The notes beneath the pieces were generated by a model. That model was not told the DNA's origin and ran no database searches. It saw only the letters and a list, made by a program, of their open reading frames with translations. The position numbers and the translations under genes were made by a program. From an uncultured bacterium (GTDB lineage: Bacteria; Babelota; Babeliae; Babelales; Vermiphilaceae), in the NCBI GenBank assembly GCA_963701645.1, contig OY969616.1, positions 502,463 through 566,462 of the forward strand: DNA of 64,000 nt, read 5' to 3'. Of this stretch, positions 23,787-57,483 are shown piece after piece. Position 1 is the first letter of the stretch. Every line of letters begins with the position of its first letter.

Positions 23787-23789
23787 TTT

Positions 23790-23817
23790 TTGCATTTTTA
23801 CTCTTTGCTGGTACACT
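23790..23817 (+). promoter_or_regulatory. Putative internal promoter TTGCAT-16-TACACT
   Basis: -35 at 23790-23795 and -10 at 23812-23817, 40 nt before the ATG at 23857, followed by GAAACTAATTTT. It resembles the MKY-family promoters. Confidence 0.4.
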
Positions 23818-23856
23818 GAAACTAATTTTAAATATTCCAAAAAAAAGGATGATCGT

Positions 23857-27096: not shown

Positions 27097-28012
27097 GCCG
27101 TTTATTATTAGTATGATACTTGCTTGTTTGGCATCGGTTGTGTGCAGTATTCCCGGAACATTTTTGGTGCTTCGTGGTGTTGCGCTCATGAGTGATGCAA
27201 TTAGTCATACATTATTGTTTGGTATTGTCATGACATTTTTGTGCGTGCAAACACTTCATACACCGCTATTATTTGTTGGTGCAGTATGCTCTGGCCTGAT
27301 GATGGTTTTTGTTGTCGAATGCATTGTCCATACGCGACGCATGACGGAAGATGTGGCAATTGGCACCATATTTCCTATCTTTTTTTCGCTTGGCGTTATT
27401 TTGATGTGTTTATTTGTGCATGATGTCCATCTTGATGTTGATATGGTTCTTTTGGGCGATCTTGCATTTGCTCCCTTTGATCGATTTATCTGCCTGGGAA
27501 TCGATTGTGGTCCCTGGGGGTTGTGGATTTTGAGTAGTGTACTTTGTATCCACGGTGCAGCTATTTTTTGTATGTATTATGCACTTCAGTATGCTTTTTT
27601 TGATATGGAAGGGGCATCAATTATGGGTGTACGCGTGCGTCTTGTGCAGTATGGCCTGATGGCAATTACCGCATTGTCAGCAGTTGCCGCATGCCATGTT
27701 GTTGGAAGCATTGTTGTTGTGGCACTCATGATTACGCCGCCAGCAGGAGCATATTTGTTGACGGAACGAGTTTTTCCCATGCTCATGGTGAGTATTTTTA
27801 TTGGGATCTGTGCATCACTGTGTGGCTATGGAGCAGCGCAGTATGCAGATGTTTCTATTGCAGGGTCAATAGCGGCAGTCAATGGGCTTATTTTTTTGTG
27901 TATCCTCTTTTTTGCTCCGCGCAAAGGAATTATAGGTACCTGGTGGTACGGCCGAGCCTGTCGGCGTGTGTATGCGGAGAAATTGGCGGAAGCCTACTTT
28001 TTAAAAAAGTAG
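27086..28012 (+). CDS. Metal ABC transporter permease (TroD-like)
   Basis: Second polytopic permease, paralogous to the first. ATG 27086 overlaps the upstream stop. Confidence 0.9.
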   Translation: MFHEPFIISMILACLASVVCSIPGTFLVLRGVALMSDAISHTLLFGIVMTFLCVQTLHTPLLFVGAVCSGLMMVFVVECIVHTRRMTEDVAIGTIFPIFFSLGVILMCLFVHDVHLDVDMVLLGDLAFAPFDRFICLGIDCGPWGLWILSSVLCIHGAAIFCMYYALQYAFFDMEGASIMGVRVRLVQYGLMAITALSAVAACHVVGSIVVVALMITPPAGAYLLTERVFPMLMVSIFIGICASLCGYGAAQYADVSIAGSIAAVNGLIFLCILFFAPRKGIIGTWWYGRACRRVYAEKLAEAYFLKK

Positions 28013-30517
28013 TTGCAGCAATTCTGGGAGCGCGCTGGGATCTATTTGTTTTGTTACTGTCGTAATAATGTCTTGTTTTGTCTTTTCAGGTTGCGCATTG
28101 AAAAGTTTGGCAACGTGTTCTACCAGGGATATAAAATTCTTGTCATTCCTCAGATCATTCCAGAAATGTTTTCCCATGCACATTAAAATATATTCGCAGC
28201 ATGCTTTTTGATAGACATCGGTCGTGATAGTTGGGAGTACGCGATTGATATGGGCAACAGAGCCGACTGTTAAAGAATCATCGGTGGCGGTACAGGTATG
28301 CAAGAACTCAACAAAAGCAGATGCATCTTTTTTTGCGATTAAGGCTTCATTGATTTTTTTTTCAAACAAATAAAGTATGCTATTTTCTTGCGGGGTTCGA
28401 ACGAATAATATGCAGAGAATCTCTGCCTGATTAAAGATGTTATTCATATTTGTCGACAGTGCTAAAAATAAAAATAATGGGTCGTTCAGCTGGGTCTGAA
28501 AAATTTTGTTACGCTGATAAAGCTGTTGAGCGGCATGAGGGTAGCATGCAGAAAGATTGCGAATAAGGGAATTTTTTGGCAGCAATGGAAGAATAAGATT
28601 GAGTATGTGTGCTTCTTTTTCAATGGTATTTGCCGTGATAACTTCCAGTTTTGGATGAGTGGGAGAAAAAGTGATCTCCATTTTAACCGGTATTTTATTG
28701 ACAGAACTACTCAATGCTATCAAAGGAGATTGAGTTGTGTGCAGCATTGCATCATTAACTGTTTTTATATTTTCAGATACATCAAAATCAAACACGGTGC
28801 ATAACTCTTCAAAACTGTTTATCTGGGTACCAAAAAAATAATTTATAAGGGAGACAATATTACTGGGATATCCGGCAAGCTCACCAAGGGCATAGCTACT
28901 ATCAACAAATTGGTGGGGACCAAAATTTTCCGAATATTCTTTTCCTTGAATTGGATGCAAAAAAGGCTGATCTGTATTTTTTTGTGCGGGTTGAGAATTA
29001 TCAGTTTTTATTTTGAATAAATATTTGATGCCGGGAATGTCGGACATGAGTTCTGTGAGTTCTGTATGTAAGGGGATTTTTTCTACGATTGTTGCATCGG
29101 GATAGTGTGTAAAAAATTCTTGCAGAGCAGCACCATGCAGCTTTAATATTGTTTTATCAAAAGGAATACCTTTATCATCTAAATACGTTGTTATTCTTGG
29201 TATAATCAGTGATGGAATAAAGATTGCTTGTTCAAAATTATAGGCACCAATTTTGGCTATAATAATCCGAAGAAAATTCATAAACACCGCTTCAGCGCAG
29301 TTCTGAAAACCCATATTTTTTACAGAAACTCCCTGAAATCGTATTTTAGGAGGCAAGCTGGTGCTGAGATTCCAGAGGGCTTCATAGGCAAGTTGTTCAT
29401 AATGTGTGTTGACAAAAGATTTAATTTCTTTTTTGAACTTGGGCTTCCATATTTTCCAGTGCTCACTTTTCTTTGTTATATTTTTTGTGTGATCAAGCTT
29501 TGCATTAAATAACTGCGCCGCATCTTTTTTAATAATAGAGGGATTAAACTGATTGAAATAGATAAAAAAATCGTCTTTGGTTGTTGCTTGTTCATAAAGG
29601 AGCGACAATAAAATGGTATGAGGCGTATATTTCGGATAGATTGCAGTGTCGGTATTGTGCCCAATATGTCCTGCTTCTCTGAGGGCACCTACAAGAGTTT
29701 TTGCCATTTTTGCTGCAGCTATTTTCATAAAATGCCATGATTTTTTATTTTCTTTTTCTTGAACGTTCAGTTTTTTTAATTCCTCGACCAAATTTTTCAG
29801 GTTTGTTATGTATTGTGATTTTCTGTCGGATTGTACCGATTCAAAAAGTTTTTCTATAAAACCTTCTTTTGCATCAGCCAAGCGTTGCAAGCTTCTCTTC
29901 CATTGCTGCTCAGTAAACTGGAAGTATCTTTTTTGCTGTAAAATTTTGGCTAGTGCGAGATCAGTGTCTTTTTCCATGAGGGTAAAATTATTTTTTGCTC
30001 GAATGCCCAGATCCTTAACTGCCTTTGCGATATTTTTCGTTGTTTTAGCTGCTGGTGTTGCAGAAAATATAATTTCTGCCAAAGACTTTTGCAATGTCTT
30101 TACGTGCTTTTCATCGCCCCCATCAAACTCATCTATTTTTGATAATAATTGTCCGATAATATCAGCCGTAAGATGTGTGGCGGGCTTGGTGGGGACATTT
30201 GTTCTGCCAAACTGTCCCGGAACACGATGGAAAAGGCTTAAAATGAGATGCATGGTACTGTCTGCTTTTATGATTTTTTCGACCACGTCATTGGCATCAA
30301 GTTCCACCGTTGCATTACCCCAGACATAATATTTTTCAAGAAGCCCTGATTCGATCCAAATAAAGCCATGAAAAGGAGATAAATATTTCTTTTCTTCAAT
30401 GACCGTATCATACAAACCCCGCAGATCCCGCTTGTCTGCAATGCGAGGGTTGATGACAAAAAAAAGAGAGCTCGTGATAAAAACGAGAAAAAAAATTATT
30501 TGGTGTTTTTTGATCAT
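28001..30517 (-). CDS. Giant-paralog family member 1 (838 aa, shortest), N-terminal membrane anchor
   Basis: MIKKHQIIFFLVFITSSLFFVIN anchor, then the conserved module RIADKRDLRGLYD..YVWGNATVELDAN. Conserved FQNCAEAVFMNFLR and GPHQFVD motifs. Last gene of the operon. Confidence 0.9.
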   Translation of the reverse strand: MIKKHQIIFFLVFITSSLFFVINPRIADKRDLRGLYDTVIEEKKYLSPFHGFIWIESGLLEKYYVWGNATVELDANDVVEKIIKADSTMHLILSLFHRVPGQFGRTNVPTKPATHLTADIIGQLLSKIDEFDGGDEKHVKTLQKSLAEIIFSATPAAKTTKNIAKAVKDLGIRAKNNFTLMEKDTDLALAKILQQKRYFQFTEQQWKRSLQRLADAKEGFIEKLFESVQSDRKSQYITNLKNLVEELKKLNVQEKENKKSWHFMKIAAAKMAKTLVGALREAGHIGHNTDTAIYPKYTPHTILLSLLYEQATTKDDFFIYFNQFNPSIIKKDAAQLFNAKLDHTKNITKKSEHWKIWKPKFKKEIKSFVNTHYEQLAYEALWNLSTSLPPKIRFQGVSVKNMGFQNCAEAVFMNFLRIIIAKIGAYNFEQAIFIPSLIIPRITTYLDDKGIPFDKTILKLHGAALQEFFTHYPDATIVEKIPLHTELTELMSDIPGIKYLFKIKTDNSQPAQKNTDQPFLHPIQGKEYSENFGPHQFVDSSYALGELAGYPSNIVSLINYFFGTQINSFEELCTVFDFDVSENIKTVNDAMLHTTQSPLIALSSSVNKIPVKMEITFSPTHPKLEVITANTIEKEAHILNLILPLLPKNSLIRNLSACYPHAAQQLYQRNKIFQTQLNDPLFLFLALSTNMNNIFNQAEILCILFVRTPQENSILYLFEKKINEALIAKKDASAFVEFLHTCTATDDSLTVGSVAHINRVLPTITTDVYQKACCEYILMCMGKHFWNDLRNDKNFISLVEHVAKLFNAQPEKTKQDIITTVTKQIDPSALPELLQLLF

Positions 30518-30524
30518 AATTATC

Positions 30525-33500
30525 CTACGATTCCAACGCTTTTTTTACGGCTCTTAAAATTGGTTCTTTCTTTTTTTCCAAAAGCTTCTTTTCTGTGCGC
30601 AATGTTTTAAGATCATAATTTGTAGGATCTTCTGCCTCAAGCTTTTCAATTTTTTCTTTGCGAATCTGTATTTGTGTATAGAACAAATTTGATAGCGGGT
30701 TAAGAGATTCATATAATTGGGAATTGGTCATTTTTGTAGCAATAATTCTGTGCATTTTTACTAATATGTTTTCATATGGTTTTGTAATACAAAATGTAAA
30801 AAATGAGGTGAGGCAAGTTTTGATAAGCGGTGTAGTTTGTGCATCAAGACTTTCTGCTTTATTATAAAATGAAAGCATATTATCTATTATGTTGGCGTAA
30901 CAATTTTGAAAGGCTCTGATATCCTCCGATTCCCTTATTAAATCTGTCAATGTCTTGCTTGTATCAGTTGCAAGAAATTTTTCTATACCGCTTGCAAAAA
31001 ATGTTTTTATAAAAGGGAAAAATAGAGTTTTTTGATATTCTATAATTTCTTTTGTCGCTGAAATAATAGTATGGGCAAGAAATTCTGACATGTCCGGTTC
31101 ACTGAGATATGTGGTGATGTATTGTACATTAAATAATTTATTTGCAATCTCTTCTGTGATGGAATATAACGATGTTCCTGGTGTAATATTTTTGTTAATG
31201 AGTTTTAATAATAATATGCCTGCATCGTGAAAAGATCCGAAATCTTCCATGAATTTTGATTGATGAAGGAGTGTAAAGAGTAATGGAAATAAGAAGGAAG
31301 CATCAGCCTCTATAATTTCAGTTTCAGTACTCCATGCATTATGTTTAAACATATTACTGAGAATAGATTGTATTTTTTTTTCTTTTTCTTCTGGAGTGAA
31401 AAAATCAGTTTTTGTGTGGTGTAGTACTTGCAAATAGTTTACTTTATTAGTGCGAGGAAAAAGTTCTCCTTCCAGTGCTAATTTTAAACAAGGAATAAGT
31501 GAATCAGGTATTGTTTGCAATTCAGAACTTGTCAAACTTTCAATGATAATAGCTTGTTGTACGTCTATAGGTTGGCTATTAAGCCATGTAGTAACGGTAT
31601 CAAGAATAGAAACAAAGTGAGAGTCGGTAGCAAACTGTTCCCAATGGTGGTTAACAATAAATTTTAATACATCTGGATAAACGAGCCCTTTTAAAGTTTG
31701 CTTTTTCTTTGAATCTGGTGGGAAACAAGAAAGTAATTTTTCCATGAGCGTGAGTGAATGCTCGCTCAAAATGTGTTCTTTTTTTGCAAAAGCACTTATT
31801 ATTTCTCCGATAAGATAGAGATTTGGTGAGACTATAAATGAAGCAAGCATTTTTTCTGATGTGACGTTTAAAAATTTATTCGGTTCAAATTCATTATGCA
31901 TGATTGATGTGTAAAGAAATTCTCCCTGTACTTTAGATTTCTTGATGTTACTTGATAAAGCAACAAATAAAAGATAAGCACTATCCAAAACTGTTTTGCT
32001 TACATTAAGGCGAATTTCAATTTGTTCCTTGGCATACGGGTAACAAGCGGTAAGATTTTGTATGGAAATATCTGAGGTAATCAAGGGAAGAAGATGATCT
32101 AACATTGGTTCATGTCGATCGAATGATTTATTGGTATCGACAAATTCTAAATTGGTATGACCTGTTGACAAAGAAATGGTAAGTGTTATAGGGGTATTAT
32201 TTATGATGCTGTGCATTGTTACCTTGGGAACTTTTTCTATATTCTGTTCAAAATAAGTGACCCATATATTTTTATCATCTGCTATTTGTACATCTCCGGT
32301 AAGGGCAAAATCAAAAGCGGTACACAGTTCTGAAAAGGAGGTAAAATTAGTACCAAAAAAATGATTTACTATAGTGATAAAACTGCTCGGATATCCTGCA
32401 AGTTCAAACAATGTATACTGATCATCAACAAGCTCATGATTGCCAAATTCTTCACCGTATGTTTTACCAGGAAGGGGATGCAACATGGGCTCCCTACTAT
32501 CCTTATATGCTGGTGCAGAACCATCATTTTTTATTTTTTGTAAATATTTAATACCCGGCAAGTCTGAAGAAATATCTGTCAATGTTTGGTTAATGGAAAA
32601 ACCATCAACGATTGTGGCATTACTGTATTTTTGTAAAAAATTTTGGAAAGGGAGAATATTTTCTTGCATTTTTGCTGCATTAAAGGGAATATTATTGGTA
32701 GTGAAAAATTGACTAATTTTTGAGGGAAGATCATCGGCGATAAAGAGAGATTTGCTAAAATCATATGCTCCCATTTTTGCCACAAGAACTCGAAGCAAGG
32801 TCATGATCGTTGCTTCTCCACAGTCAATAAATTCGCAACCCTTAATAGATACCCTGCTGTCTCGTATTTTAGGAGGCAAAAGTGATCCAAGGTTATAAAT
32901 AGCTTCATAGGCAAGTTGTTCAAATTGATACATAATATATGATTCTATATTGTTCCGCATACCTCTTGCCTGGCTTGTAATATCCAATGTATGATCAAGC
33001 TGTCCTTCAAAATAACCTTCTTCAGGGTGTATAATGGCGGGAGAAAATTGTTTGAAATATATAAGAAAATCATCTTTTCTAGCTGCTGCATCATATAAAA
33101 AGGAAAGTAAAATCATCTGTGTTGTGTAGGGAGGATAGCTTGGATCTTTTTGACTCGTGCGGATAATGCTGCCACATTCTTTGAGAGATTCGACCATATA
33201 TTTTGCAATGTTAGTTACCGACGATTTTAAAACGTTGAACTCTTTTGTTATAGAATCTAGTGAAGCTGTACTGTTTTTAAAATTTTCAACATATTCGGCA
33301 ACAAGGTTGGCAAGCTGTTCCTTGTCTTCTGCGGTGATAGAATCAAATAATTTTCTTATCTGTTCATTGCTGAGTTTGCTCAGATTTTGCAAACTTTTTT
33401 TCCACTGAGATTTGGTGAAATTGAAATATTGTTTAGTTTTTTTATTATTTTGTAGCTGTTGGATTGAGGGGTTTTGGAGAAGTTGCATTGTTTTATTGGC

Positions 33501-34013
33501 TATATCGACCAATATTTTTTCGCTATTCTGCATGCTATGTGCTGTGGGCAAAATATTCATAAAAATTGTGACCAGCTCTTTTTGCAATGCCGCCGCTTCT
33601 TTTTCTGTTTTCCCCTCATAGCGGTCAATGGCGGCAACCATTTTGCCAATGCTTTCAGGCGTGAGATAGCTTGCAGGGTTATTTTTTAATGTTGTTCTGC
33701 CAAACTGCCCCGGAACACGATGGAAAAGGCTTAAAATGAGACGCATGGTATTATCGGCGCTGATTACTTTTTTGACTACGCCATTAGCATCAAGTTCCAC
33801 CGTTGCATTACCCCAGACATAATATTTTTCAAGAAGCCCTGATTCTACCCAGATAAAACCATGAAAAGGGGACAGATACTTTTTTTCTTCAATGACTGCA
33901 TCATACAAACCCCGCAAATCCCGCTTATCTGCAATGCGGGACGAGAGGGGTGAGATAATGGTGATGAGAGAAAGGAATAAAAAAAATGTATATATATGTT
34001 TTGTGAATATCAT
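30525..34013 (-). CDS. Giant-paralog family member 2 (1162 aa)
   Basis: Same N-terminal module. FIDCGEATIMTLLR and GNHELVD motifs. Its stop lies 7 nt before the member 1 start. Confidence 0.9.
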   Translation of the reverse strand: MIFTKHIYTFFLFLSLITIISPLSSRIADKRDLRGLYDAVIEEKKYLSPFHGFIWVESGLLEKYYVWGNATVELDANGVVKKVISADNTMRLILSLFHRVPGQFGRTTLKNNPASYLTPESIGKMVAAIDRYEGKTEKEAAALQKELVTIFMNILPTAHSMQNSEKILVDIANKTMQLLQNPSIQQLQNNKKTKQYFNFTKSQWKKSLQNLSKLSNEQIRKLFDSITAEDKEQLANLVAEYVENFKNSTASLDSITKEFNVLKSSVTNIAKYMVESLKECGSIIRTSQKDPSYPPYTTQMILLSFLYDAAARKDDFLIYFKQFSPAIIHPEEGYFEGQLDHTLDITSQARGMRNNIESYIMYQFEQLAYEAIYNLGSLLPPKIRDSRVSIKGCEFIDCGEATIMTLLRVLVAKMGAYDFSKSLFIADDLPSKISQFFTTNNIPFNAAKMQENILPFQNFLQKYSNATIVDGFSINQTLTDISSDLPGIKYLQKIKNDGSAPAYKDSREPMLHPLPGKTYGEEFGNHELVDDQYTLFELAGYPSSFITIVNHFFGTNFTSFSELCTAFDFALTGDVQIADDKNIWVTYFEQNIEKVPKVTMHSIINNTPITLTISLSTGHTNLEFVDTNKSFDRHEPMLDHLLPLITSDISIQNLTACYPYAKEQIEIRLNVSKTVLDSAYLLFVALSSNIKKSKVQGEFLYTSIMHNEFEPNKFLNVTSEKMLASFIVSPNLYLIGEIISAFAKKEHILSEHSLTLMEKLLSCFPPDSKKKQTLKGLVYPDVLKFIVNHHWEQFATDSHFVSILDTVTTWLNSQPIDVQQAIIIESLTSSELQTIPDSLIPCLKLALEGELFPRTNKVNYLQVLHHTKTDFFTPEEKEKKIQSILSNMFKHNAWSTETEIIEADASFLFPLLFTLLHQSKFMEDFGSFHDAGILLLKLINKNITPGTSLYSITEEIANKLFNVQYITTYLSEPDMSEFLAHTIISATKEIIEYQKTLFFPFIKTFFASGIEKFLATDTSKTLTDLIRESEDIRAFQNCYANIIDNMLSFYNKAESLDAQTTPLIKTCLTSFFTFCITKPYENILVKMHRIIATKMTNSQLYESLNPLSNLFYTQIQIRKEKIEKLEAEDPTNYDLKTLRTEKKLLEKKKEPILRAVKKALES
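31405..31864. repeat. 460-nt block identical (1 mismatch at 31800) to 38323-38782
   Basis: Line-by-line comparison of member 2 and member 4 DNA, offset 6918. Confidence 0.9.
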
Positions 34014-34015
34014 AA

Positions 34016-37000
34016 TTATTCTCCTGTTATTTTTTTGACAGCACTGAGTATGGACTGTTTATCATTTTCTAAATCATTTTTTCTATCGAAAAAACGACGG
34101 AGGTCGGGATTATCGGGATCTTCTTTTTCAAGAGTATTAATTTTTTCTGTATAGAGTTGTAATTGTGTCTCAATTAAGTTGGGCAAGACTTTAAAACATT
34201 CATACAGTTGGGGATCTGCTATTTCGATATTGAGAATATCTTGCAATTTTGGCGCAACAGATGAGTTGTATTGTGTAATACAAGATGTCAAAAAGGATGT
34301 CAGGCATGTTTTGATAAATGGCAGAGTAAGTTCATCGATGTTTTCTGCCTCATTATAGAAAAGTAACATTTGCTCCACTACAGTAGCATAAAATAATAGA
34401 AAATCGACAGATTCTTGGTCATCAAAGATGGAGCTTTCTAAGAAAAATTTTTCTATAAAAGAATAACATATCGTTTTTTGATTGACTGCGATATCACCTA
34501 TAAGAAATGTTAAATAATCGAGAAGAGATGGAATGTCTTTGCTATTTAAATGGGTACGAATGTATCGTATATTAAATATCTTGCTCGCTACATTTTCGGT
34601 TATGGCATAGAGAGGTGTTCCTGGAATTATGTCTTCATTAAGAAGTTCGTTTAATAGTTCTATTCCATCATTTGCAAAAGCGATAGGACCTTTTGGTTCT
34701 GCTGTATTCATTTTTTTGATTAAAAAAGGGAAAAGAAAAGAAAGACCTTGTTCTACAATATTCTTTGCAGTTTCCCATATACTTTTTTCGGGGAAAATTT
34801 TAGACTCAAAAGGCTGTATAATTTTTTCTTTTTCTTCTTCTGTGAAAATAGTACCAGTATTATCTACTACCCTTATATAAGATATGATTCCAGCGTACTC
34901 TTGGGTCAAGGGACCATGATTGATTGATGCTTTTATGATGGGAATTAAGGTATCAGGTATTGCTTGTGGGGAAAATGTTTTTAGTACATTAAAGATAATG
35001 TTCTGTTGCATATCAATTCTTTGCTTTGACAGCCATGTGTTAATGGTATCAAGGATAGTGATAAATTCAGAATTAGTAGCAAATTTTTCCCAATTATTCT
35101 TAAAGATAATTTTTAATATTTTTTCATACGCGTTTTCCTTTTGTATATCTGATGTAATACAAGAAAGGAATTTATGCATTAAAGCAAAAGTATGAGTGCT
35201 TAACTGTTTCAGGTCAAAAAAATTGGTTAAAAAATAAACTGACAGATTTTCATCATTTTTTGATACGACCATATTTACAATTTTTTCTGTTACGCTATAC
35301 AAAGGTTTGGTTGGTTCAAATTGGTTTTTACTGATTAATTTGTCAAGAAGATAAAACAGAGATTTACTAATGTTGCCTGATAAAGCAAAAAATGGAAGAT
35401 ATGCATCGTCTGATAAATTACTTAAGTAAATGCGCTCTTCCGTGCCTTGTTTTGCACGGGGATAGCATGCGCTTAAATTTCTCATGGAAAGTTCTGATGC
35501 ATGGGGGAGTATTACAATCAATATAGATTCATCTTTTTTGGGAGATTCACCAGCTTCATTTAAAAGCTCTATCGCATTATGTCTCGTAGAAAAAGAAAGT
35601 GTGAATGTTATGGGTATTTTATTGATAATTGTTTTTATCGTTATAAACCAAGTTTTATGGATGTTGTTTCTATAAAACTCTTCCCATATTTTTTTGTCAT
35701 TCCCTGTGTCAAGATTTCCTGAACCAGTACAGTCAAAAACAGTACATAATTCTTCAAAAGATGTTATGTGAGTACCAAAAAAATGATTCACCATAGCAAT
35801 ATAACTGCTTGGATATGGAGCAAGTTCAAAAAGTGTATAACTATCATCAACAAGTTCATGAGGGCCAAAATCTTCTCCATATGCTGTATTGGCAACAGGG
35901 TGAATTACTGGTATTTTGTTATCCCTGACTGCCGCACTAGAAAGATCATTTTTTATTTTTTGTAAATATTTGATTCCCGGTATATTGGTAAAAATATCAG
36001 TCAATGCTTGGGACATTTTTGTATCAGATACAATAGTAGCATCACTGTATTTTTTAAAAAATTCTTGCAGAGAAGCAATGTTTTTTTGCATCAAATCTTG
36101 ATTAAATGGAACATGTTGCTCGTGAAAAAACTTTGTAATTTTTGATGGTATTGCATTTGCATCAAACAGGGTAGTTTCAAAATTGTATGCTCCTATTTTT
36201 GCCATAATAATGCGAAAAAATGACATAAGGGCTATTTCTGTGCAGTTACTAAATTTAATATTTTTGATAAAAATAGGATCATCTGTAAAAGATATTTTGG
36301 GTGGCAAGGATGATGCAAGATTATAAATGGCTTCATAAGCAATTTGTTCAAAATGAGTATTAATAAAATAAAGTTGGTGTTCGGGATCGGGATTTTTTTC
36401 TACATTGAGTCTATAATCTAATTTTCCTTCAAAAAGTTGTTCGCTATTTTCTTGTAAAATTGAAGGATCAAATTGCTTGAAATATATCATAAAATCATCT
36501 TTTGTTTTTGCTTTTTCATACAGCAAAGAAAGTAAGATCATGTGTGTTGTATAAGAGGGATAAATTGGCTCATAGTTTGTTGGAATGAATCCACATTCTT
36601 TGAGTGATTCGACAATCATTTTGCTTACTTTTGGAACAGCAAGCCGCAATGCTTTAGATTGCTTTTTACTCTTTTCTTCCTCTATAGCTGTTTTGAAGTC
36701 GCCAACAAGGCTGATAATTTTGTCTCTATAGAGTTCCTTTTCTGTATCCTGTCTTTCTTCAAATAATTGGCGTATGTTTTTGTCAGGTAATGCGCTTAAT
36801 TTTTGCATACTATTTTTCCAATTTTTTGGTGTAAAATTAAAAAATTGTTTTGTTTTTTTATTTTGCTGCAGTTTTTTTATGTAAGGAATTTGGTCAAGCA
36901 ATATGAGTTCTTTACGAATGGCCTCCATTTTTGGCTCAAAGACGCCCATAAGAATATCTTGGATTTCCTGTTCCAGCATGGGGCCTCTTGCTTTTTCTGG

Positions 37001-37414
37001 ATTTTCTTCTATGAGCGTTTCTGTCCGATCTATAGCGGCAACTATTTTTCCGATAACTTCAGGTGTAAAGTAAGTGGCAGGATTGGTTTTTGTTGTTGTT
37101 GGACCGAATTGGCCAGGAAGACGATAGAAAAAATTTAAAATGCAGAGCATAGTATTGTCTGCTTTTATGATTTTTTCGACTACCCCATTCGCATCAAGTT
37201 CCACCGTTGCATTGCCCCAGACATAATATTTTTCAAGAAGCCCTGATTCTACCCAGATAAAACCATGAAAAGGGGATAAATATTTCTTTTTTTCAATGAC
37301 TGCATCATACAAACCCCGCAAATCCCGCTTATCTGCAATGCGAGAGTTGATGACAAAAAAAAGAGAGCTCGTGATGAAAACGAGAAAAAAGATTATTTGG
37401 TGCTTTTTGGTCAT
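34016..37414 (-). CDS. Giant-paralog family member 3 (1132 aa)
   Basis: Its anchor is almost identical to member 1. FSNCTEIALMSFFR and GPHELVD motifs. Its stop lies 2 nt before the member 2 start. Confidence 0.9.
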   Translation of the reverse strand: MTKKHQIIFFLVFITSSLFFVINSRIADKRDLRGLYDAVIEKKKYLSPFHGFIWVESGLLEKYYVWGNATVELDANGVVEKIIKADNTMLCILNFFYRLPGQFGPTTTKTNPATYFTPEVIGKIVAAIDRTETLIEENPEKARGPMLEQEIQDILMGVFEPKMEAIRKELILLDQIPYIKKLQQNKKTKQFFNFTPKNWKNSMQKLSALPDKNIRQLFEERQDTEKELYRDKIISLVGDFKTAIEEEKSKKQSKALRLAVPKVSKMIVESLKECGFIPTNYEPIYPSYTTHMILLSLLYEKAKTKDDFMIYFKQFDPSILQENSEQLFEGKLDYRLNVEKNPDPEHQLYFINTHFEQIAYEAIYNLASSLPPKISFTDDPIFIKNIKFSNCTEIALMSFFRIIMAKIGAYNFETTLFDANAIPSKITKFFHEQHVPFNQDLMQKNIASLQEFFKKYSDATIVSDTKMSQALTDIFTNIPGIKYLQKIKNDLSSAAVRDNKIPVIHPVANTAYGEDFGPHELVDDSYTLFELAPYPSSYIAMVNHFFGTHITSFEELCTVFDCTGSGNLDTGNDKKIWEEFYRNNIHKTWFITIKTIINKIPITFTLSFSTRHNAIELLNEAGESPKKDESILIVILPHASELSMRNLSACYPRAKQGTEERIYLSNLSDDAYLPFFALSGNISKSLFYLLDKLISKNQFEPTKPLYSVTEKIVNMVVSKNDENLSVYFLTNFFDLKQLSTHTFALMHKFLSCITSDIQKENAYEKILKIIFKNNWEKFATNSEFITILDTINTWLSKQRIDMQQNIIFNVLKTFSPQAIPDTLIPIIKASINHGPLTQEYAGIISYIRVVDNTGTIFTEEEKEKIIQPFESKIFPEKSIWETAKNIVEQGLSFLFPFLIKKMNTAEPKGPIAFANDGIELLNELLNEDIIPGTPLYAITENVASKIFNIRYIRTHLNSKDIPSLLDYLTFLIGDIAVNQKTICYSFIEKFFLESSIFDDQESVDFLLFYATVVEQMLLFYNEAENIDELTLPFIKTCLTSFLTSCITQYNSSVAPKLQDILNIEIADPQLYECFKVLPNLIETQLQLYTEKINTLEKEDPDNPDLRRFFDRKNDLENDKQSILSAVKKITGE
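35575..35830. repeat. 256-nt block identical to 39071-39326
   Basis: Member 3 compared with member 4, offset 3496. Confidence 0.9.
36532..37276. repeat. 745-nt block identical to 40046-40790
   Basis: Member 3 compared with member 4, offset 3514. The identical spurious antisense ORFs at 36803..37138 and 40317..40652 are a by-product. Confidence 0.92.
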
Positions 37415-37421
37415 AATTATC

Positions 37422-40400
37422 CTACGATTCCAACGCTTTTTTTACAGCTTTTAAAATTGGTTCTTTCTTTTTTTCCAAAAGTTCCTTTTTTGTGCGCAGC
37501 GATTCAAGATCAAAATAAAGATCGGGATCTTTACTTATTGTTGGATTTTTTGCCTCAAGTTCTTCAACTCTTTTTGTATGTATCTTTATTTGCGCATCAA
37601 ATAAGCTTGATATGGGATTAAGAGATTCATATAGCTGCGAATTGGTTATTTGTGTTGCAATGATTCTTTGCATTTTTAACAACATTTTTTTATTTGGTTC
37701 CATGATACAAAATTTAAAAAATGAAGTGAGGCAACTGTTAATAAGAGGTGTAATTTGTGCATCAAGACTTTCTGCTTTGTTATAAAAGGAAAGCATAATA
37801 TCTATTATATCAGCGTAACAATTTTGGAAAGTTAAGGGATTTTCCTTTTTAGCTAATGCATTTGTACGTGTATTAGCTATATCACTTGAAAAATATTTTT
37901 CTACGCTAGTTAAAAATAATGTTTCTATGTAGGGAAAAAATAGAGCTTTTTGTTCTGTTATAATTGTTTTTATACTTGGAATAAGAATTTCGTGAAGGAA
38001 TTCTGATATGGAACTATCGATGAAATTTGTAGTGATGTAGTGTACATTAAATAATCGTTTTGCAACGTATTCTGCCATGAAATATAAAGGGGTTTCTGGG
38101 ATGATATTTTTGTCTATTAATTTTGATAAAAAGGTGCCTGCCCCTTCAAAATTCATGCGACCTTTTATGGATTTTGCTTGAATTTGTTTATACAGTAATG
38201 GAAATAAGAAAGAGGTATTATTACTACGCATGATGTCAGTTGCAGTTCTCCATAGGTTACGTTGAACCTCATTGCTAAAAACGGATTGTATTCTTTGTTC
38301 TTTGTCTTCTTCCGTAAAAAAGTCAGTTTTTGTGTGGTGTAGTACTTGCAAATAGTTTACTTTATTAGTGCGAGGAAAAAGTTCTCCTTCCAGTGCTAAT
38401 TTTAAACAAGGAATAAGTGAATCAGGTATTGTTTGCAATTCAGAACTTGTCAAACTTTCAATGATAATAGCTTGTTGTACGTCTATAGGTTGGCTATTAA
38501 GCCATGTAGTAACGGTATCAAGAATAGAAACAAAGTGAGAGTCGGTAGCAAACTGTTCCCAATGGTGGTTAACAATAAATTTTAATACATCTGGATAAAC
38601 GAGCCCTTTTAAAGTTTGCTTTTTCTTTGAATCTGGTGGGAAACAAGAAAGTAATTTTTCCATGAGCGTGAGTGAATGCTCGCTCAAAATGTGTTCTTTT
38701 TTTGCAAAAGCACTTATCATTTCTCCGATAAGATAGAGATTTGGTGAGACTATAAATGAAGCAAGCATTTTTTCTGATGTGATGTTTAAAAATTTGTTAG
38801 GTTCAAATTCATTGCGCTTGATTGATATAGAAAGAAATTGACTTTGTATTTCAGATTTACTGATATTACTTGATAAGGCGACAAATAAAAGATAAGCACT
38901 ATCCAAAACTGTTTTACTTAAGTTCAGACGGCTTCCAAATTTCTCTTTAGCATAAGGGTAGCATGTTGTAAGATTTCGTATCGAAATATCTGAGATAATA
39001 AAGGGAAGAAGATGATCTAACATTGGTTCATGTCGATCGAATGATGTATTGGTATTTAAAAATTCTATGCCATTATGTCTCGTAGAAAAAGAAAGTGTGA
39101 ATGTTATGGGTATTTTATTGATAATTGTTTTTATCGTTATAAACCAAGTTTTATGGATGTTGTTTCTATAAAACTCTTCCCATATTTTTTTGTCATTCCC
39201 TGTGTCAAGATTTCCTGAACCAGTACAGTCAAAAACAGTACATAATTCTTCAAAAGATGTTATGTGAGTACCAAAAAAATGATTCACCATAGCAATATAA
39301 CTGCTTGGATATGGAGCAAGTTCAAAGAGTGTATAATTATCATCAACAAGTTCATGGGTGCCAAAGTCTTCTGTATAGATTTTATCAGGAAGAGGATGAA
39401 GAACTGGATTAGCACCATTTTTTTTGGCTTCTTCAGAACCATTGTTGTTAATTTTTTGTAAATATTTTATTCCTGGTATGTTGGTAAAAATATCTGTTAA
39501 TGCTTGGGCCATATTTGGATTAGATGCAATGAAAGCACTGGTATATTTTTTAAAAAATGCTTGTAGAGGAGCAATATTTTTTTGCATCAAATCTTGATCA
39601 AATGGAACATGTTGTACGTGAAAAAATTCTCTGATTTTTTGTGGTATAGCATCTGCATCAAACAGTGCATTTTCAAAATTATATGCTCCTATTTTTGCCA
39701 TAATAATGCGGAAGAATGACATAAGAGTTGCTTCTGCGCAGCTACTAAAAGTAGTATTTTTAATAATGACATTGAGCCAAGGTAATTTGGGGGGCAATAA
39801 TGATTGTAGATTGTGAATAGCTTCATAGGCAATTTGTTCGAAATTGGTAATGATAAAAAGAAGGAGGTTTTCTTTATCTTCTCCTTCTGCTACTTTTTCT
39901 TCTACTTTTTTTGATACATTGAGTGTATGATCTAATTTTCCTTCAAAAAATTTTTCGCTTTTTTCTTGTAAAATTGAAGGATCAAATTGCTTGAAATACA
40001 GTATAAAATCATCTTTTGTTTTTACTTTTTCATACAGCAGAGCGAGTAAGATCATGTGTGTTGTATAAGAGGGATAAATTGGCTCATAGTTTGTTGGAAT
40101 GAATCCACATTCTTTGAGTGATTCGACAATCATTTTGCTTACTTTTGGAACAGCAAGCCGCAATGCTTTAGATTGCTTTTTACTCTTTTCTTCCTCTATA
40201 GCTGTTTTGAAGTCGCCAACAAGGCTGATAATTTTGTCTCTATAGAGTTCCTTTTCTGTATCCTGTCTTTCTTCAAATAATTGGCGTATGTTTTTGTCAG
40301 GTAATGCGCTTAATTTTTGCATACTATTTTTCCAATTTTTTGGTGTAAAATTAAAAAATTGTTTTGTTTTTTTATTTTGCTGCAGTTTTTTTATGTAAGG

Positions 40401-40991
40401 AATTTGGTCAAGCAATATGAGTTCTTTACGAATGGCCTCCATTTTTGGCTCAAAGACGCCCATAAGAATATCTTGGATTTCCTGTTCCAGCATGGGGCCT
40501 CTTGCTTTTTCTGGATTTTCTTCTATGAGCGTTTCTGTCCGATCTATAGCGGCAACTATTTTTCCGATAACTTCAGGTGTAAAGTAAGTGGCAGGATTGG
40601 TTTTTGTTGTTGTTGGACCGAATTGGCCAGGAAGACGATAGAAAAAATTTAAAATGCAGAGCATAGTATTGTCTGCTTTTATGATTTTTTCGACTACCCC
40701 ATTCGCATCAAGTTCCACCGTTGCATTGCCCCAGACATAATATTTTTCAAGAAGCCCTGATTCTACCCAGATAAAACCATGAAAAGGGGACAGATACTTT
40801 TTTTCTTCAATGACTGCATCATACAAACCCCGTAGATCCCGTTTATCTGCAATGCGGGACAAGAGTGGTGAGATAACGGTGATGATAACCAAAAGAAAAA
40901 AATATGATTTTCTCTTTCTTATGAGGCTCCACGAGGAAAGAATGGAGAAAAAAAAGTATGATATATTACTATATTTTTGTGTCATAGCCAT
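37422..40991 (-). CDS. Giant-paralog family member 4 (1189 aa), a mosaic of member 3-like and member 2-like tracts
   Basis: First gene of the operon. FSSCAEATLMSFFR (Cys codon 39738-39740) and GTHELVD (His codon 39354-39356). The N-terminal 29 aa are encoded partly by a REP-like repeat. Confidence 0.9.
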   Translation of the reverse strand: MAMTQKYSNISYFFFSILSSWSLIRKRKSYFFLLVIITVISPLLSRIADKRDLRGLYDAVIEEKKYLSPFHGFIWVESGLLEKYYVWGNATVELDANGVVEKIIKADNTMLCILNFFYRLPGQFGPTTTKTNPATYFTPEVIGKIVAAIDRTETLIEENPEKARGPMLEQEIQDILMGVFEPKMEAIRKELILLDQIPYIKKLQQNKKTKQFFNFTPKNWKNSMQKLSALPDKNIRQLFEERQDTEKELYRDKIISLVGDFKTAIEEEKSKKQSKALRLAVPKVSKMIVESLKECGFIPTNYEPIYPSYTTHMILLALLYEKVKTKDDFILYFKQFDPSILQEKSEKFFEGKLDHTLNVSKKVEEKVAEGEDKENLLLFIITNFEQIAYEAIHNLQSLLPPKLPWLNVIIKNTTFSSCAEATLMSFFRIIMAKIGAYNFENALFDADAIPQKIREFFHVQHVPFDQDLMQKNIAPLQAFFKKYTSAFIASNPNMAQALTDIFTNIPGIKYLQKINNNGSEEAKKNGANPVLHPLPDKIYTEDFGTHELVDDNYTLFELAPYPSSYIAMVNHFFGTHITSFEELCTVFDCTGSGNLDTGNDKKIWEEFYRNNIHKTWFITIKTIINKIPITFTLSFSTRHNGIEFLNTNTSFDRHEPMLDHLLPFIISDISIRNLTTCYPYAKEKFGSRLNLSKTVLDSAYLLFVALSSNISKSEIQSQFLSISIKRNEFEPNKFLNITSEKMLASFIVSPNLYLIGEMISAFAKKEHILSEHSLTLMEKLLSCFPPDSKKKQTLKGLVYPDVLKFIVNHHWEQFATDSHFVSILDTVTTWLNSQPIDVQQAIIIESLTSSELQTIPDSLIPCLKLALEGELFPRTNKVNYLQVLHHTKTDFFTEEDKEQRIQSVFSNEVQRNLWRTATDIMRSNNTSFLFPLLYKQIQAKSIKGRMNFEGAGTFLSKLIDKNIIPETPLYFMAEYVAKRLFNVHYITTNFIDSSISEFLHEILIPSIKTIITEQKALFFPYIETLFLTSVEKYFSSDIANTRTNALAKKENPLTFQNCYADIIDIMLSFYNKAESLDAQITPLINSCLTSFFKFCIMEPNKKMLLKMQRIIATQITNSQLYESLNPISSLFDAQIKIHTKRVEELEAKNPTISKDPDLYFDLESLRTKKELLEKKKEPILKAVKKALES
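38323..38782. repeat. Partner of 31405-31864
   Basis: Same comparison as above. Looser similarity continues to about 39048. Confidence 0.9.
39071..39326. repeat. Partner of 35575-35830
   Basis: Same comparison as above. Confidence 0.9.
40046..40790. repeat. Partner of 36532-37276
   Basis: Same comparison as above. Confidence 0.92.
40905..40960. repeat. REP/RPE-like hairpin repeat copy lying inside the annotated 5' coding end of member 4
   Basis: ATGATTTTCTCTTTCTTATGAGGCTCCACGAGGAAAGAATGGAG matches the unit at 481-530. Hairpin CTCCA..TGGAG at 40927-40947. Confidence 0.7.
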
Positions 40992-41198
40992 TCCCAGTTT
41001 TCAAATTGAATTTATAAGAAAAGTAACATACGGGGTTTGCAAAAGTAAAGGGTTTTATACTGGGTAAAAAACAGTGGGAGGCACGAAAGAGATTGTTTTT
41101 TTTTACATATAGAGTATCCTTAGTTTTCGGAAGTAATTATGCAGATTAAGAGATAAAAATAAGTAATTTTGTATTTTAATATTCAGGATGAGGATTCC

Positions 41199-41435
41199 AT
41201 GCCAGTACCAAAACGTAAACGCTCGCGCACGCGCCGTGATAAGCGGTTTGCCAATAAAGGGTTAATACCACAAACATTTTCCAACTGTACCCAGTGTAGC
41301 AAGCCATGTGTGCCCCACGTTGTGTGTCAGTCTTGTGGATATTACAAGGGTGTCCTTGTGATAAAAGAGCACGTAAAAAAAGCTAAAAAAGTTGCACAGA
41401 AAAAATCAGCAAAATCTGCATCAGCAGAAGAATAA
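41199..41435 (+). CDS. rpmF: 50S ribosomal protein L32
   Basis: MPVPKRKRSRTRRDKR N-terminus and a CxxC...CxxC zinc ribbon (CTQCSKP..CQSCGYYKG). Lys-rich tail. Start trimmed from TTG 41169. Confidence 0.9.
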   Translation: MPVPKRKRSRTRRDKRFANKGLIPQTFSNCTQCSKPCVPHVVCQSCGYYKGVLVIKEHVKKAKKVAQKKSAKSASAEE

Positions 41436-41443
41436 CATCTGCC

Positions 41444-42529
41444 ATGGCGTTACGAGCAAAAAATTGCATTATTGCTGTCGATGCTATGGGGGGGGACTAT
41501 GCTCCGCAAGCTGTTATTGAGGGAGCACTTGCTGCCGCAGCTGAAGGTATCCCTGTTGTTTTGTTTGGTGATGAAAAAGTTATAGAGCAGCTGCTTTTTG
41601 GTTGTGATCAGGAATGGAAAAAACTGCCGCTGGAAATAGTGCATTGTACCGATGTTATTGCGATGGATGAGGAGCCAAGTAAGGCGGTCCTCAGAAAAAA
41701 AGATGCATCTTTAATTAAAGCAATGCACAGTGTTGTCAATGGCAGGACTCATGCAGTTGTGTCGGCAGGAAATTCGGGAGCGGTTTTAGTTGCCAGTACC
41801 GTTATTCTTGGCAGAACAGCAGGCGTGCTTAGGCCGGCAATCGGAGGTTTTTTACCAACGCAAAAAGGATCGGTCTTTTGCATAGATTTGGGGGCAAATA
41901 CTGATTGCAAAACAGAATACTTAGAGCAGTTTGCCTTTATGGGGCATGCGTATGTTTCTGTTGTGCATGGCATGACATCCCCCCGCATTGGTTTATTGTC
42001 TAATGGACATGAGCCCTATAAGGGGTCTGGAATTGTCAAAGAAGCATATGGTCGTCTGACGCAATCGAGTTTGAATTTTGTTGGCAATATCGAGGCACGT
42101 GATATTTTCAATGACAAAACTGACGTGCTCGTGTGTGATGGATTTTCAGGAAATATTATGCTTAAAACTGCGCAAGCAACAGCACGGGTGATGATGGACT
42201 GGCTCAAACAGGAAGCAGCTACATCGTGGTGGTCAAAAGCGGCACTTGGTTTGAGTGCGCCGCTGTTGAAAAAATTAAAATCAAAAACTGATTATAGTCG
42301 TATTGGTGGAGCGTTATTGTTAGGGGTACAACATCCAGTTATCACCGCGCATGGCAGTTCTAATGCACAAGCGATTGCCCACGCAATTTCTTTTGCCCAT
42401 GCAGTGGTACAAAAACAGATTATTAGGCGTTTTAATGAGAAACTGGTAGAGTTGTTGCATAAACAGAAAACATCTTTTTCGACGATGTTGGAACGTAAAG
42501 AACGATCATTATTGTCATGGGCACAGTAA
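41444..42529 (+). CDS. plsX: Phosphate acyltransferase PlsX
   Basis: IAVDAMGGDYAP, VSAGNSGA and GFSGNIMLKT motifs. Sits in the canonical position after rpmF. Confidence 0.95.
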   Translation: MALRAKNCIIAVDAMGGDYAPQAVIEGALAAAAEGIPVVLFGDEKVIEQLLFGCDQEWKKLPLEIVHCTDVIAMDEEPSKAVLRKKDASLIKAMHSVVNGRTHAVVSAGNSGAVLVASTVILGRTAGVLRPAIGGFLPTQKGSVFCIDLGANTDCKTEYLEQFAFMGHAYVSVVHGMTSPRIGLLSNGHEPYKGSGIVKEAYGRLTQSSLNFVGNIEARDIFNDKTDVLVCDGFSGNIMLKTAQATARVMMDWLKQEAATSWWSKAALGLSAPLLKKLKSKTDYSRIGGALLLGVQHPVITAHGSSNAQAIAHAISFAHAVVQKQIIRRFNEKLVELLHKQKTSFSTMLERKERSLLSWAQ

Positions 42530-42543
42530 CTGAAAGGTTTGTA

Positions 42544-43242
42544 ATGAAAAAAAATCATGTGTTGTCAGGAATACAAGAGACAGTAGAAGTAACCCGCACT
42601 GAAATAAAAAAGTATGTTTCTTTTGCATATGCACGCGAAATTTTTGCGGGCATTGCAGTTGTGTGTGTGGGAATCATGTGTTGGTATGGATTTTCGTGGT
42701 ATAAAGTGCGACAAAATCAGCGGGCACATATTGGGTTAAGCTTTTGCATAGAGGCGTATCATAAGGCTCAGTTGGAAGAAGGTGCTGATTTTAGTTCGGC
42801 GATACAGCTGTTTCGTGATGGATATGCAATTCATGGATCAAGTTCATTGGCGCCATTTTTTCTCGTTTATGAGGCGGATATTCTTTTGCAGCAGGGCAAT
42901 CGCCATGATGCAATTCCTGTTTTGAAAAAAGCGGTTGAAACTTTAGGGAATTCTCCTCTTGCGTATTTGTATAAAACGAAACACGCGCTTGTTATGATGG
43001 ACAGCAATGAAACTGATATCAAGCAGCAAGGTCTTGATGCTCTTCTTGCCTTAGCGCGAGAGCCAAAAAATCAGTACAGCGATAATGCACTCTATTTCCT
43101 TGGGCGATATTATGCAGTGAATAATCAAAGAGATGAAGCGCGGATGATTTGGCAGGAGCTTGCGGAAATTTATGAAGTGAATGGTGCTGATGCATCACCA
43201 TGGGCTGAACGCGCGTGGGAAGCACTTCGCCTGATGGTATAA
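42544..43242 (+). CDS. Membrane-anchored TPR-like protein (YfgM-like architecture)
   Basis: One TM helix (IFAGIAVVCVGIMCWYGF) followed by helical repeat-like sequence (ALYFLGRYYAVNNQRDEARMIWQEL). Start set to ATG 42544. Confidence 0.6.
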   Translation: MKKNHVLSGIQETVEVTRTEIKKYVSFAYAREIFAGIAVVCVGIMCWYGFSWYKVRQNQRAHIGLSFCIEAYHKAQLEEGADFSSAIQLFRDGYAIHGSSSLAPFFLVYEADILLQQGNRHDAIPVLKKAVETLGNSPLAYLYKTKHALVMMDSNETDIKQQGLDALLALAREPKNQYSDNALYFLGRYYAVNNQRDEARMIWQELAEIYEVNGADASPWAERAWEALRLMV

Positions 43243-43272
43243 AAAACAGTTTTTGCATAAAGGACGTTTGCC

Positions 43273-44709: not shown

Positions 44710-44736
44710 AAAAAATAAAAAAAGAAGAGGTAGTTC

Positions 44737-45663: not shown

Positions 45664-45711
45664 TGTAGAGTAAAATACGCATATTAACGCTACATAACTG
45701 GAGATACCGCA

Positions 45712-45966: not shown

Positions 45967-45968
45967 TC

Positions 45969-47540: not shown

Positions 47541-47625
47541 AGCAGTACCCCGGCATAAAGTTCATCTTTTTTATCGCTTTTACTATAGGAAATTTGTGAC
47601 CGTGGAGGCAAGCATTTCTCCTTTT

Positions 47626-49446: not shown

Positions 49447-49447
49447 G

Positions 49448-51253: not shown

Positions 51254-51332
51254 AGACACTCCTTTTGCGCAGCATAGCATTCTTGTTCTTGTTATACCAC
51301 AGAAAAGAGATTTTGTGCCAACAATTTTCTAC

Positions 51333-57471: not shown

Positions 57472-57483
57472 TAATGAGAGGTA

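Follow-up and report, generated by a model that had tools for sequence, protein, structure and literature searches.

Four consecutive, co-oriented open reading frames (ORFs) in a 64,000-nt stretch (the window) of contig OY969616.1, assembly GCA_963701645.1, encode large paralogous proteins. We denoted them m1 to m4, counted from the low-coordinate end of the array (Table 1). Judged from their sequence relatives, m1-m4 are a lineage-specific tandem expansion of a new, widespread and undescribed protein family. Whole modules move between the paralogs by homologous recombination or gene conversion, and this exchange drives their evolution. On balance, we favor the interpretation that the array belongs to an expanded family of exported, probably thiol-dependent and host-directed proteins that evolve by module exchange between paralogs. 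Such a locus is of a known kind, namely exported paralogs of an intracellular bacterium shaped by duplication and gene conversion, while the family and the predicted fold of its core matched nothing in the libraries searched, an absence that carries weight because the model is confident.

Mosaic identity among the four genes

Each protein would consist of five parts: a Sec-type signal or anchor, a small N-terminal module (N-module) that would begin at the predicted mature end, a hypervariable helical hairpin, an alpha+beta core, and a variable alpha-solenoid, which would be replaced by leucine-rich repeats (LRR) or ankyrin repeats in some relatives. Similarity along these parts was strongly non-uniform, as the initial annotation of the window had stated. 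In a codon alignment scanned with 150-nt sliding windows, identity within one gene pair ranged from 33% to 100%. A search for maximal exact repeats recovered the three blocks reported earlier, all of them shared with m4: a block of 746 nt (one more than the 745 nt first given) and a block of 256 nt shared with m3, and a block of 460 nt with one mismatch shared with m2. The 746-nt block spans most of the N-module and the helical hairpin, and the 460-nt block lies within the C-terminal solenoid. Outside the shared blocks, the DNA background was 50-70% identical.

Identical runs of this length were not reproduced by chance. When variable sites were permuted 5000 times, the longest run was 56 nt for m3/m4 and 47 nt for m2/m4, compared with 746 nt and 395 nt observed, and in no gene pair did any of the 5000 permutations reach the observed longest run. 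Furthermore, two of the genes are chimeras. The m4 gene is m3-type from approximately nt 270 to nt 1900, and m2-type at its 5′ end and from approximately nt 1950 to its end. The m1 gene has an m3-like N-terminus (92% amino acid identity over the first 120 alignment columns), but its hairpin is closest (57-75% amino acid identity) to that of P0005, a fifth, unlinked paralog in the same genome, suggesting that exchange also involves a copy outside the array. Beyond the gene junction and approximately the first 300 nt, to which the similarity of m3 and m1 is limited, m1 is nearest to P0005. This bears on the origin of the array, which had been ascribed to duplication of a two-gene unit because the junctions at 30483-30600 and 37381-37498 are homologous. 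The homology holds, at approximately 90% identity, but the duplication does not follow from it: since m3 and m1 resemble each other over so short a stretch, conversion may account for the homologous junctions better than a unit duplication does.

The modules differ in how they have been treated by exchange. The N-module is 88-98% identical in protein among m1-m4, with a synonymous divergence (dS) of 0.3-0.7 compared with 1-2 or more elsewhere. The low dS suggests that its uniformity comes from repeated homogenization, that is, concerted evolution, and not from selection alone. The hairpin occurs as three types, one in m3 and m4 (100% identical), one in m2 and one in m1, and the types differ by 55-85% in protein. 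The tracts are of different ages, at 100% identity, at approximately 90% identity, and at the 50-65% background. The ratio of nonsynonymous to synonymous divergence (omega, dN/dS) between paralogs was 0.24-0.55 for gene-pair segments and 0.2-0.55 in every module, including the hairpin, and purifying selection on the array genes is evident from these comparisons. Positive selection was considered and rejected, with omega below 1 in all windows, which is weak evidence where dS is saturated, as it is between most of the paralogs. Repeated segmental gene conversion or recombination, as first proposed, is supported by the blocks, by the permutations and by the m2-type gene of a related strain described below. 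We consider it nearly certain that the genes are mosaics formed by recombination among paralogs.

Exchange since the split from a related strain

A contig of a related strain (L096; JGI 3300063086) is collinear with window positions 40540-57531 at 93.4% identity and ends within the gene beside rpmF, which encodes ribosomal protein L32 and lies divergent from the array. The family gene adjoining rpmF in this strain has an ordinary signal sequence, shorter than the N-terminus of m4. It is nearest to m4 over the first ~200 aligned nt and then tracks m2. Between nt 270 and nt 1900, it is 80-97% identical to m2 except in three 120-nt windows (with a low of 64% at approximately nt 1900), but only 44-75% identical to m4. 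Its dN/dS against m2 is 0.20, with a dS of 0.51, and remains below 0.3 in every 240-nt window. The positional ortholog of m4 in the related strain is therefore m2-type, and the ~1.6-kb m3-type tract entered m4 after the two strains diverged. All of this tract is m3-type, and much of it is identical to m3. By this comparison, at least one exchange of approximately 1.6 kb is younger than the divergence from a strain with flanks of 93% identity. The comparison provides rare direct evidence of recent module replacement, and module exchange within the divergence of two 93%-identical strains offers a natural experiment on how such proteins diversify.

Blocks of this kind could in principle arise if the assembly had collapsed its paralogs or joined different ones into chimeras, since exact repeats of 256-746 nt exceed short reads and can mislead assemblers. 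We regard this as hardly credible here. None of the block boundaries interrupts any of the four reading frames, and the record is a single 1,478,608-bp contig. In addition, a Logan unitig (L095, run ERR10755941) matches 33909-35604 at 99.9%, differing by a single mismatch and a 1-nt indel in a homopolymer. The unitig runs through the m3/m2 junction, which argues against a chimeric assembly at this point, and it ends inside the 256-nt repeat, breaking there as a real repeat does in de Bruijn assembly. The related strain independently shows an m2-type paralog beside rpmF.

Ordinary recombination and programmed variation

The mosaic pattern had led the initial annotation to a contingency, antigenic-variation or cassette-like locus. 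In such a locus, segmental gene conversion among cassettes would continually make new surface variants that escape the host. Several observations agree with this idea: the patchwork of identical tracts, the fact that the most divergent module (the hairpin, 15-45% amino acid identity between types) is the one that is swapped whole, a mosaic that differs between two strains 93% identical in their flanks, and the export signals of the proteins. Anaplasma msp2/p44, Borrelia vlsE, Neisseria pilE/pilS, and Treponema tprK are likewise mosaics made by segmental transfer between paralogs, with a variable module flanked by conserved sequence able to guide recombination. However, these systems have one expression site, many promoterless partial cassettes and high variation within populations, whereas m1-m4 are complete co-oriented genes with omega below 1 and a handful of exchanges. 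Segmental exchange between members was thus found, but silent donors were not. The array is not divided into an expression site and silent cassettes: each of the four genes has its full length, is preceded by a ribosome-binding site (RBS) and keeps the conserved residues, and no partial or promoterless family copies were found in the window by tblastn.

Sequence features that could drive programmed change were also looked for. Simple-sequence tracts in the array did not exceed a 9-nt homopolymer and one weak 23-nt repeat with 2.3 copies, and no credible inverted repeats were found there. Invertible or phase-variable control was rejected, as no relevant simple or inverted repeats were present; nor was there any meaningful tandem repeat. 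No recombinase match was found among the window ORFs scanned, which were those of at least 150 aa except 63547-63999. The range of omega in every module, including the hairpin, the small number of visible exchange events, and the single-copy occurrence of relatives among housekeeping genes also speak against a dedicated variation system. Given the complete genes, the lack of silent donors and repeats, and a dN/dS of 0.2-0.55, we consider programmed variation quite improbable, and this part of the initial annotation is not supported.

Duplicated tuf genes and rRNA operons, which undergo concerted evolution, are a further point of comparison: there, recombination between nearby repeats likewise leads to identical tracts and low dS. 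In the array, by contrast, homogenization is patchy and stands beside highly diverged module types, giving new combinations and not uniform copies. Overall, the observations are those expected of functional, co-expressed paralogs that undergo ordinary homologous recombination, by which certain modules are homogenized and the rest are reshuffled.

An undescribed family with a conserved Cys/His core

No match for m1-m4 was found in Pfam or NCBIfam, and the conserved region gave none in 40 relatives (apart from repeats) or in 18 core-only segments. Under lax thresholds, the core-only segments produced scattered Pfam hits, each in a single member, that were set aside as noise, among them an Nt_Gln_amidase hit (E = 0.03) that was not trusted. 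Searches of PDB sequences with phmmer and with a profile (hmmsearch) returned designed helical repeats or noise only. These searches bear out the earlier remark that no established domain family can be recognized. Members of the family are named only "hypothetical protein" in any source, and we found nothing in the literature on the family or the genome.

Word-index searches of 5.8 billion proteins (returning 6, 6, and 2 proteins) suggested at first that the genes are orphans, as they found, beside the window genes, only three others: P0005, and P0004 and P0006 from other assemblies. This was overturned when 1.84 billion cluster representatives were searched exhaustively by HMMER with a 7-sequence profile, which gave 308 hits at E ≤ 1e-3, of which 143 had E ≤ 1e-10 and 29 had E ≤ 1e-30. 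The length of most hits is 700-1250 aa. Nearly all of the clusters come from metagenomes, and 13 of the 14 that were looked up are singletons. The array had been put forward as an undescribed system; the family is indeed undescribed, but it is widespread, with 308 clusters. Scanning genome contigs with the family alignment gave no match, and the same scan of metagenomes recovered only the contig already known for P0004.

The relatives with readable context are single-copy genes among housekeeping genes, on bacterial contigs of 30-37% G+C, implying that the four-gene array is a local expansion. Two of them, P0004 and P0007, are syntenic, with the family gene lying between recF-dnaN-xerC and proS. 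Together with m1-m4, the relatives P0004-P0007 align over the whole region of signal, N-module and Cys/His core. Two relatives carry LRR and one carries ankyrin repeats, and the NCBIfam hits of the LRR-bearing relatives cover the LRR part only.

Two loci elsewhere deserve mention. In another bacterium (L092, 2804-9748), a family gene adjoins a RING-ankyrin gene and lies a few genes from an RBR (RING-IBR) E3-ligase-like gene, which places eukaryote-like ubiquitin-system genes near the family. A distant family-like protein of 775 aa without a signal sequence (P0154; L089 5317-7644, contig ctg3435l, 1.92 Mb) is encoded in a gene-sparse region next to a piggyBac-type transposase and a PIF1 helicase. 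This contig may be part of a eukaryotic genome, which would hint at transfer between host and bacterium.

Conservation was counted in an alignment of 135 sequences with 15-25% identity, in m2 numbering. A single cysteine, Cys398, is kept in 134 of 135 sequences, and Tyr490 (131/132), Gly52 (127/129) and His619 (126/129) are conserved to nearly the same degree. Glu400 is kept in 122/135, Asp/Asn397 in 117/133, and Glu537 in 111/131, with Asn in 10 more (Glu or Asn in 121/131). By conservation, Glu537 and Asp/Asn397 are candidates for a third catalytic or oxyanion-hole residue. Across the family, the cysteine lies in the motif F-x-[DN]-C-x-E-T-x-x-R-N-F-x-N, the N-module carries K-G-x-Y...L-S-P-x-H-G directly after the signal segment, and G/x-H after a beta-hairpin is a further hallmark. 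All hallmarks are present in the four window genes, each of which also has a near-invariant RIADKRDLRGLYDAVIEEKKYLSPFHGFIW module after its hydrophobic N-terminus.

A first AlphaFold model built from 7 sequences had a poor core, with a predicted local distance difference test score (pLDDT) below 50 around the Cys and His. With 77 sequences, the model of m2 residues 25-720 reached a pLDDT of 92.2 and a predicted template modeling score (pTM) of 0.90. This model has a small alpha/beta N-module, then a long helical hairpin with a 49-residue helix, and an alpha+beta core in which the Cys helix comes after a beta-hairpin. DSSP assigned Cys374 as the first residue of helix 374-389, and placed His595 between strands 584-590 and 597-601, just after the hairpin 573-590 (model numbering). 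In a full-length model, the C-terminal 450 residues showed only generic likeness to the solenoids of importin, CAND1 and catenin.

The predicted Cys/His arrangement is typical of Cys-His hydrolases and transferases. In particular, a Cys at a helix N-terminus followed by a His in a beta region, both near-invariant, is what the model and the alignment show, as would be expected of clan CA (papain-like enzymes, including OTU, USP and UCH). However, the family has no HMM match, no sequence match to a solved member and no fold match to this clan. Weighing the model and the conservation together, we lean slightly toward thiol catalysis by the Cys/His core.

Export and a possible role in the host

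At the N-terminus of most family members, a basic n-region is followed by a hydrophobic stretch, and a strongly hydrophobic 15-mer lies within the first 50 residues in 96 of 154 proteins, fragments included. Many of these segments end in a small-x-small site, with the conserved N-module starting immediately after. To judge from sequence, the N-terminal pattern is of the Sec signal peptide type, and signal cleavage is plausible for m2, m3 and m4. Since the hydrophobic segment ends exactly where conservation begins, export is as likely as anchoring. The hydrophobic N-terminal helix noted earlier in all four proteins is present, but it looks like a Sec signal sequence, and the membrane anchoring drawn from it is no likelier than export.

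The GyrA protein encoded in the window is 72-74% identical to those of Babeliales/Dependentiae (TM6) genomes and at most 52% identical to those of other phyla, and by this protein the window groups with the Dependentiae. No rRNA was found in the window. The Dependentiae are a widespread, mostly uncultured phylum, and almost none of its host-interaction proteins are known to have been characterized. The bearer of the array is probably a small-genome bacterium living inside other cells. Known and inferred members of the phylum depend on protist hosts, and type II secretion system genes belong to the TM6 core (PMC4776705). Whether the array proteins have a host-directed role is, on these sequence-based grounds, an evenly balanced question.

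The bearers of the family are small-genome bacteria. In the mechanism that we propose, the array would be expressed as a single operon from a promoter divergent from rpmF, with translational coupling. The proteins would be exported through Sec and perhaps released onward by the type II secretion system. They would act as thiol-dependent enzymes, for instance as a protease, deconjugase or transferase, and their substrate, in the host or in the envelope, would be chosen by the variable modules. We infer all four of its elements, namely catalysis, secretion beyond the periplasm, the host target, and the single operon. A more specific version, in which the core is an unseen thiol-enzyme fold, for example a ubiquitin or ubiquitin-like protease or ligase or an enzyme that modifies host proteins in another way, delivered by Sec and type II secretion and retargeted to new host proteins by swaps of the hairpin and solenoid modules, is speculative, and we hold it to be unlikely.

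Alternative functions and comparison with known effectors

Several observations weigh against the interpretation of m1-m4 as exported, host-directed thiol enzymes. Foldseek found no significant match for the 25-720 model (best E 0.9 in PDB and 0.8 in BFVD), and no sequence link to a known thiol enzyme was found in Pfam, NCBIfam or PDB sequences. The conserved Cys/His/Glu set could bind a metal or be structural. The m1 protein has Pro at position -1 of the putative cleavage site, so that its cleavage is doubtful and at least m1 may stay anchored. An N-terminal extension of ~20 aa in m4 is absent from m1-m3 and from the gene of the related strain. Finally, the assignment to the Dependentiae rests on one marker.

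In a different view, m1-m4 would be structural or binding proteins (of the envelope, adhesin-like, or scaffolds), the Cys/His/Glu residues would be structural or metal-binding, and the mosaic would be neutral concerted evolution. The lack of any enzyme family or fold match agrees with it, and so do the high proportion of helix and a solenoid tail of the kind usual in binding proteins. The low dS of the N-module reflects homogenization and not diversification, and the window holds further tandem arrays of orphans, so that duplication is evidently frequent in this genome. However, a lone Cys and a lone His, retained in at least 126 of 129-135 sequences at 15-25% identity, with the Cys at a helix N-terminus and acidic residues beside it, form the usual signature of a catalytic site and not of a scaffold, and a typical structural zinc site would need more ligands than one Cys and one His. 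A purely structural or binding role thus appears rather doubtful to us.

The long hairpin could also be a membrane-inserting element, as in the alpha-pore-forming toxins ClyA, XaxA and AhlC. The top Foldseek hits of the 25-720 model were PaxB, XaxA and AhlC, and the proteins are exported, adjacent paralogs like those of tripartite toxins. These hits were non-significant, with scores at noise level (E 0.9-8, template modeling score < 0.17). Moreover, conservation in the family is concentrated in the Cys/His core and the N-module, the hairpin being least conserved, and the relatives are single-copy genes and not tripartite sets. A pore-forming toxin is very improbable on this evidence.

Under the favored interpretation, that of exported thiol-dependent enzymes, the closest parallels would be found among effectors of bacteria living in amoebae. 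The clan CA deubiquitinase effectors ChlaOTU and Legionella Lot likewise have a Cys at a helix N-terminus, a later His in a beta region, and conserved acidic or amide residues. They are also large exported proteins of amoeba-dwelling bacteria that combine a catalytic module with variable protein-binding repeats. In contrast to them, the new family has no HMM, PDB sequence or Foldseek match, its third catalytic residue is not identifiable, and its members carry Sec signals and not those of type III or type IV secretion.

Legionella SidC and SdcA are tandem paralogous effectors whose N-terminal domain was a new fold with a Cys-His-Asp triad; they too are adjacent large paralogs of an amoeba-associated bacterium, with a catalytic Cys and a distant His in a domain that lacked recognizable relatives at its discovery, and with variable C-terminal targeting. 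The SidC structures, which are presumably in the PDB, gave no Foldseek match to the family model. Unlike the array proteins, SidC lacks a Sec signal and is a substrate of Dot/Icm, and SidC/SdcA are not known to share mosaic identical tracts. Effectors pairing LRR with a catalytic Cys (the IpaH/SspH NEL ligases and XopL) resemble the two family relatives in which LRR are joined to the conserved core. The NEL domain, however, is all-helical with a CxD motif, whereas the core of the array family is predicted to be alpha+beta with F-x-[DN]-C-x-E.

With approximately 300 clusters, a confident model, a candidate active site and no Pfam, NCBIfam or PDB relative, the family offers a well-defined starting point for the discovery of enzymes. 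Related proteins in metagenomes can be sought with two practical markers, the N-module and the F-x-[DN]-C-x-E motif. Should the Cys/His core prove to be an unprecedented enzyme that modifies the host, the known effectors of intracellular bacteria would be extended by a new class.

Organization of the array

The sizes and divergence from rpmF given for the four ORFs in the initial annotation agree with the ORF coordinates and the alignment, as do their spacing (gaps of 7, 2, and 7 nt for m1/m2, m2/m3, and m3/m4) and the RBS, AGGA or AGGAG, embedded in the last codons of each preceding gene. The array is operon-like in being tightly packed and co-oriented, and we infer a single transcript. From this layout, m1-m4 are probably co-transcribed from a promoter divergent from rpmF and translationally coupled. 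The rpmF gene lies at 41200-41427, and its ortholog has the Pfam domain Ribosomal_L32p. The intergenic region between m4 and rpmF falls inside the stretch that is collinear with the related strain at 93%. The m3/m2 junction is not homologous to the m2/m1 and m4/m3 junctions.

Table 1 Features of the m1-m4 array, in window positions, with the residues and domains of the encoded proteins.
Feature	Position	Strand	Description
m1	28001-30517	minus	838 aa
m2	30525-34013	minus	1162 aa; reference member for residue numbering and modeling
m3	34016-37414	minus	1132 aa
m4	37422-40991	minus	1189 aa; first gene of the array
746-nt block, m3 copy	36531-37276	minus	Identical to 40045-40790 (maximal exact repeat search)
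746-nt block, m4 copy	40045-40790	minus	Identical to 36531-37276
256-nt block, m3 copy	35575-35830	minus	Identical to 39071-39326; holds the conserved Glu and His codons
256-nt block, m4 copy	39071-39326	minus	Identical to 35575-35830
460-nt block, m2 copy	31405-31864	minus	Equals 38323-38782; 395 + 64 nt around one mismatch
460-nt block, m4 copy	38323-38782	minus	Equals 31405-31864
m2-to-m1 junction	30440-30640	minus	Stop, AGGA RBS, start; ~90% identical to the m4-to-m3 junction
m4-to-m3 junction	37337-37537	minus	Homologous to the m2-to-m1 junction
m4-rpmF divergent intergenic region	40992-41199		208 bp; presumed array promoter region
m1 conserved residues			Cys407, Tyr499, Glu546, His621 kept
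m2 conserved residues	32820-32822 (Cys398); 32157-32159 (His619)		Cys398, Tyr490, Glu537, His619
m3 conserved residues			Cys391, Tyr483, Glu530, His612 kept
m4 conserved residues			Cys418, Tyr510, Glu557, His639 kept
m2 domains			Signal-like, aa 1-25; N-module, 26-135; hairpin, ~137-280; Cys/His core, ~290-700; alpha-solenoid, ~700-1162

The m1 gene, whose stop overlaps the end of a convergent metal-ABC permease gene, contains the whole conserved region but has a short C-terminus. It was considered as a pseudogene and rejected as such, as the 838-aa product is recorded at NCBI and ENA and all conserved residues are kept; lengths of 770-900 aa are common in the family. The C-terminal solenoid of m3 is unlike that of m2 and m4.

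At the putative start of m4 (40925-40991, minus strand), ~20 additional N-terminal aa include a second hydrophobic stretch. None of the codons ATG, GTG and TTG occurs in m4 at the point where the other copies start, and an in-frame ATA is preceded, at a distance of 5 nt, by a GGAG. The deposited m4 protein has 1187 aa and starts at the ATG at 40985.

Terminator-like and promoter-like hits in the region were no commoner than in shuffled sequence. The same hairpin and T-run (CTCGTTTT[C/T]ATCACGAG CTCTCTTTTT) occurs on the minus strand at 37368-37384 and 30471-30487, just inside the 5′ ends of m3 and m1 and within the homologous junctions. It could act as an attenuator of read-through between gene pairs. 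In addition, two identical 111-aa plus-strand ORFs (36803-37138 and 40317-40652) are the antisense of the 746-nt block and are thus not independent genes.

Genomic surroundings

The array lies among housekeeping genes interleaved with orphans. The housekeeping genes are gyrA, dprA, a Mn/Zn ABC transporter, rpmF-plsX, gltX, fabD, ftsK, a Mur ligase gene, rsmH, lepA, and grpE. The array has a G+C content of 32-36%, compared with 39-46% in most of the housekeeping stretches.

Further groups of orphan paralogs, all without a Pfam match, were observed in the window. A second array of four tandem genes on the minus strand (45969-53447; 523, 612, 610, and 672 aa; 25-32% identity) is also kept in the related strain. 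It contains no identical blocks, which suggests that its duplication is older than that of the m1-m4 array. Three co-oriented paralogs on the plus strand (11788-17659; 198, 656, and 717 aa; 30-37% identity) lie in a low-GC stretch (34%), and two adjacent ones (5540-7431, plus strand; 297 and 320 aa; 30% identity) lie downstream of grpE. Finally, an ORF of 559 aa resembling WD40/beta-propeller proteins (23773-25452, plus strand) is located inside the Mn/Zn ABC transporter operon, between the genes for the substrate-binding protein and the ATPase, an unusual place for a eukaryote-like repeat protein.

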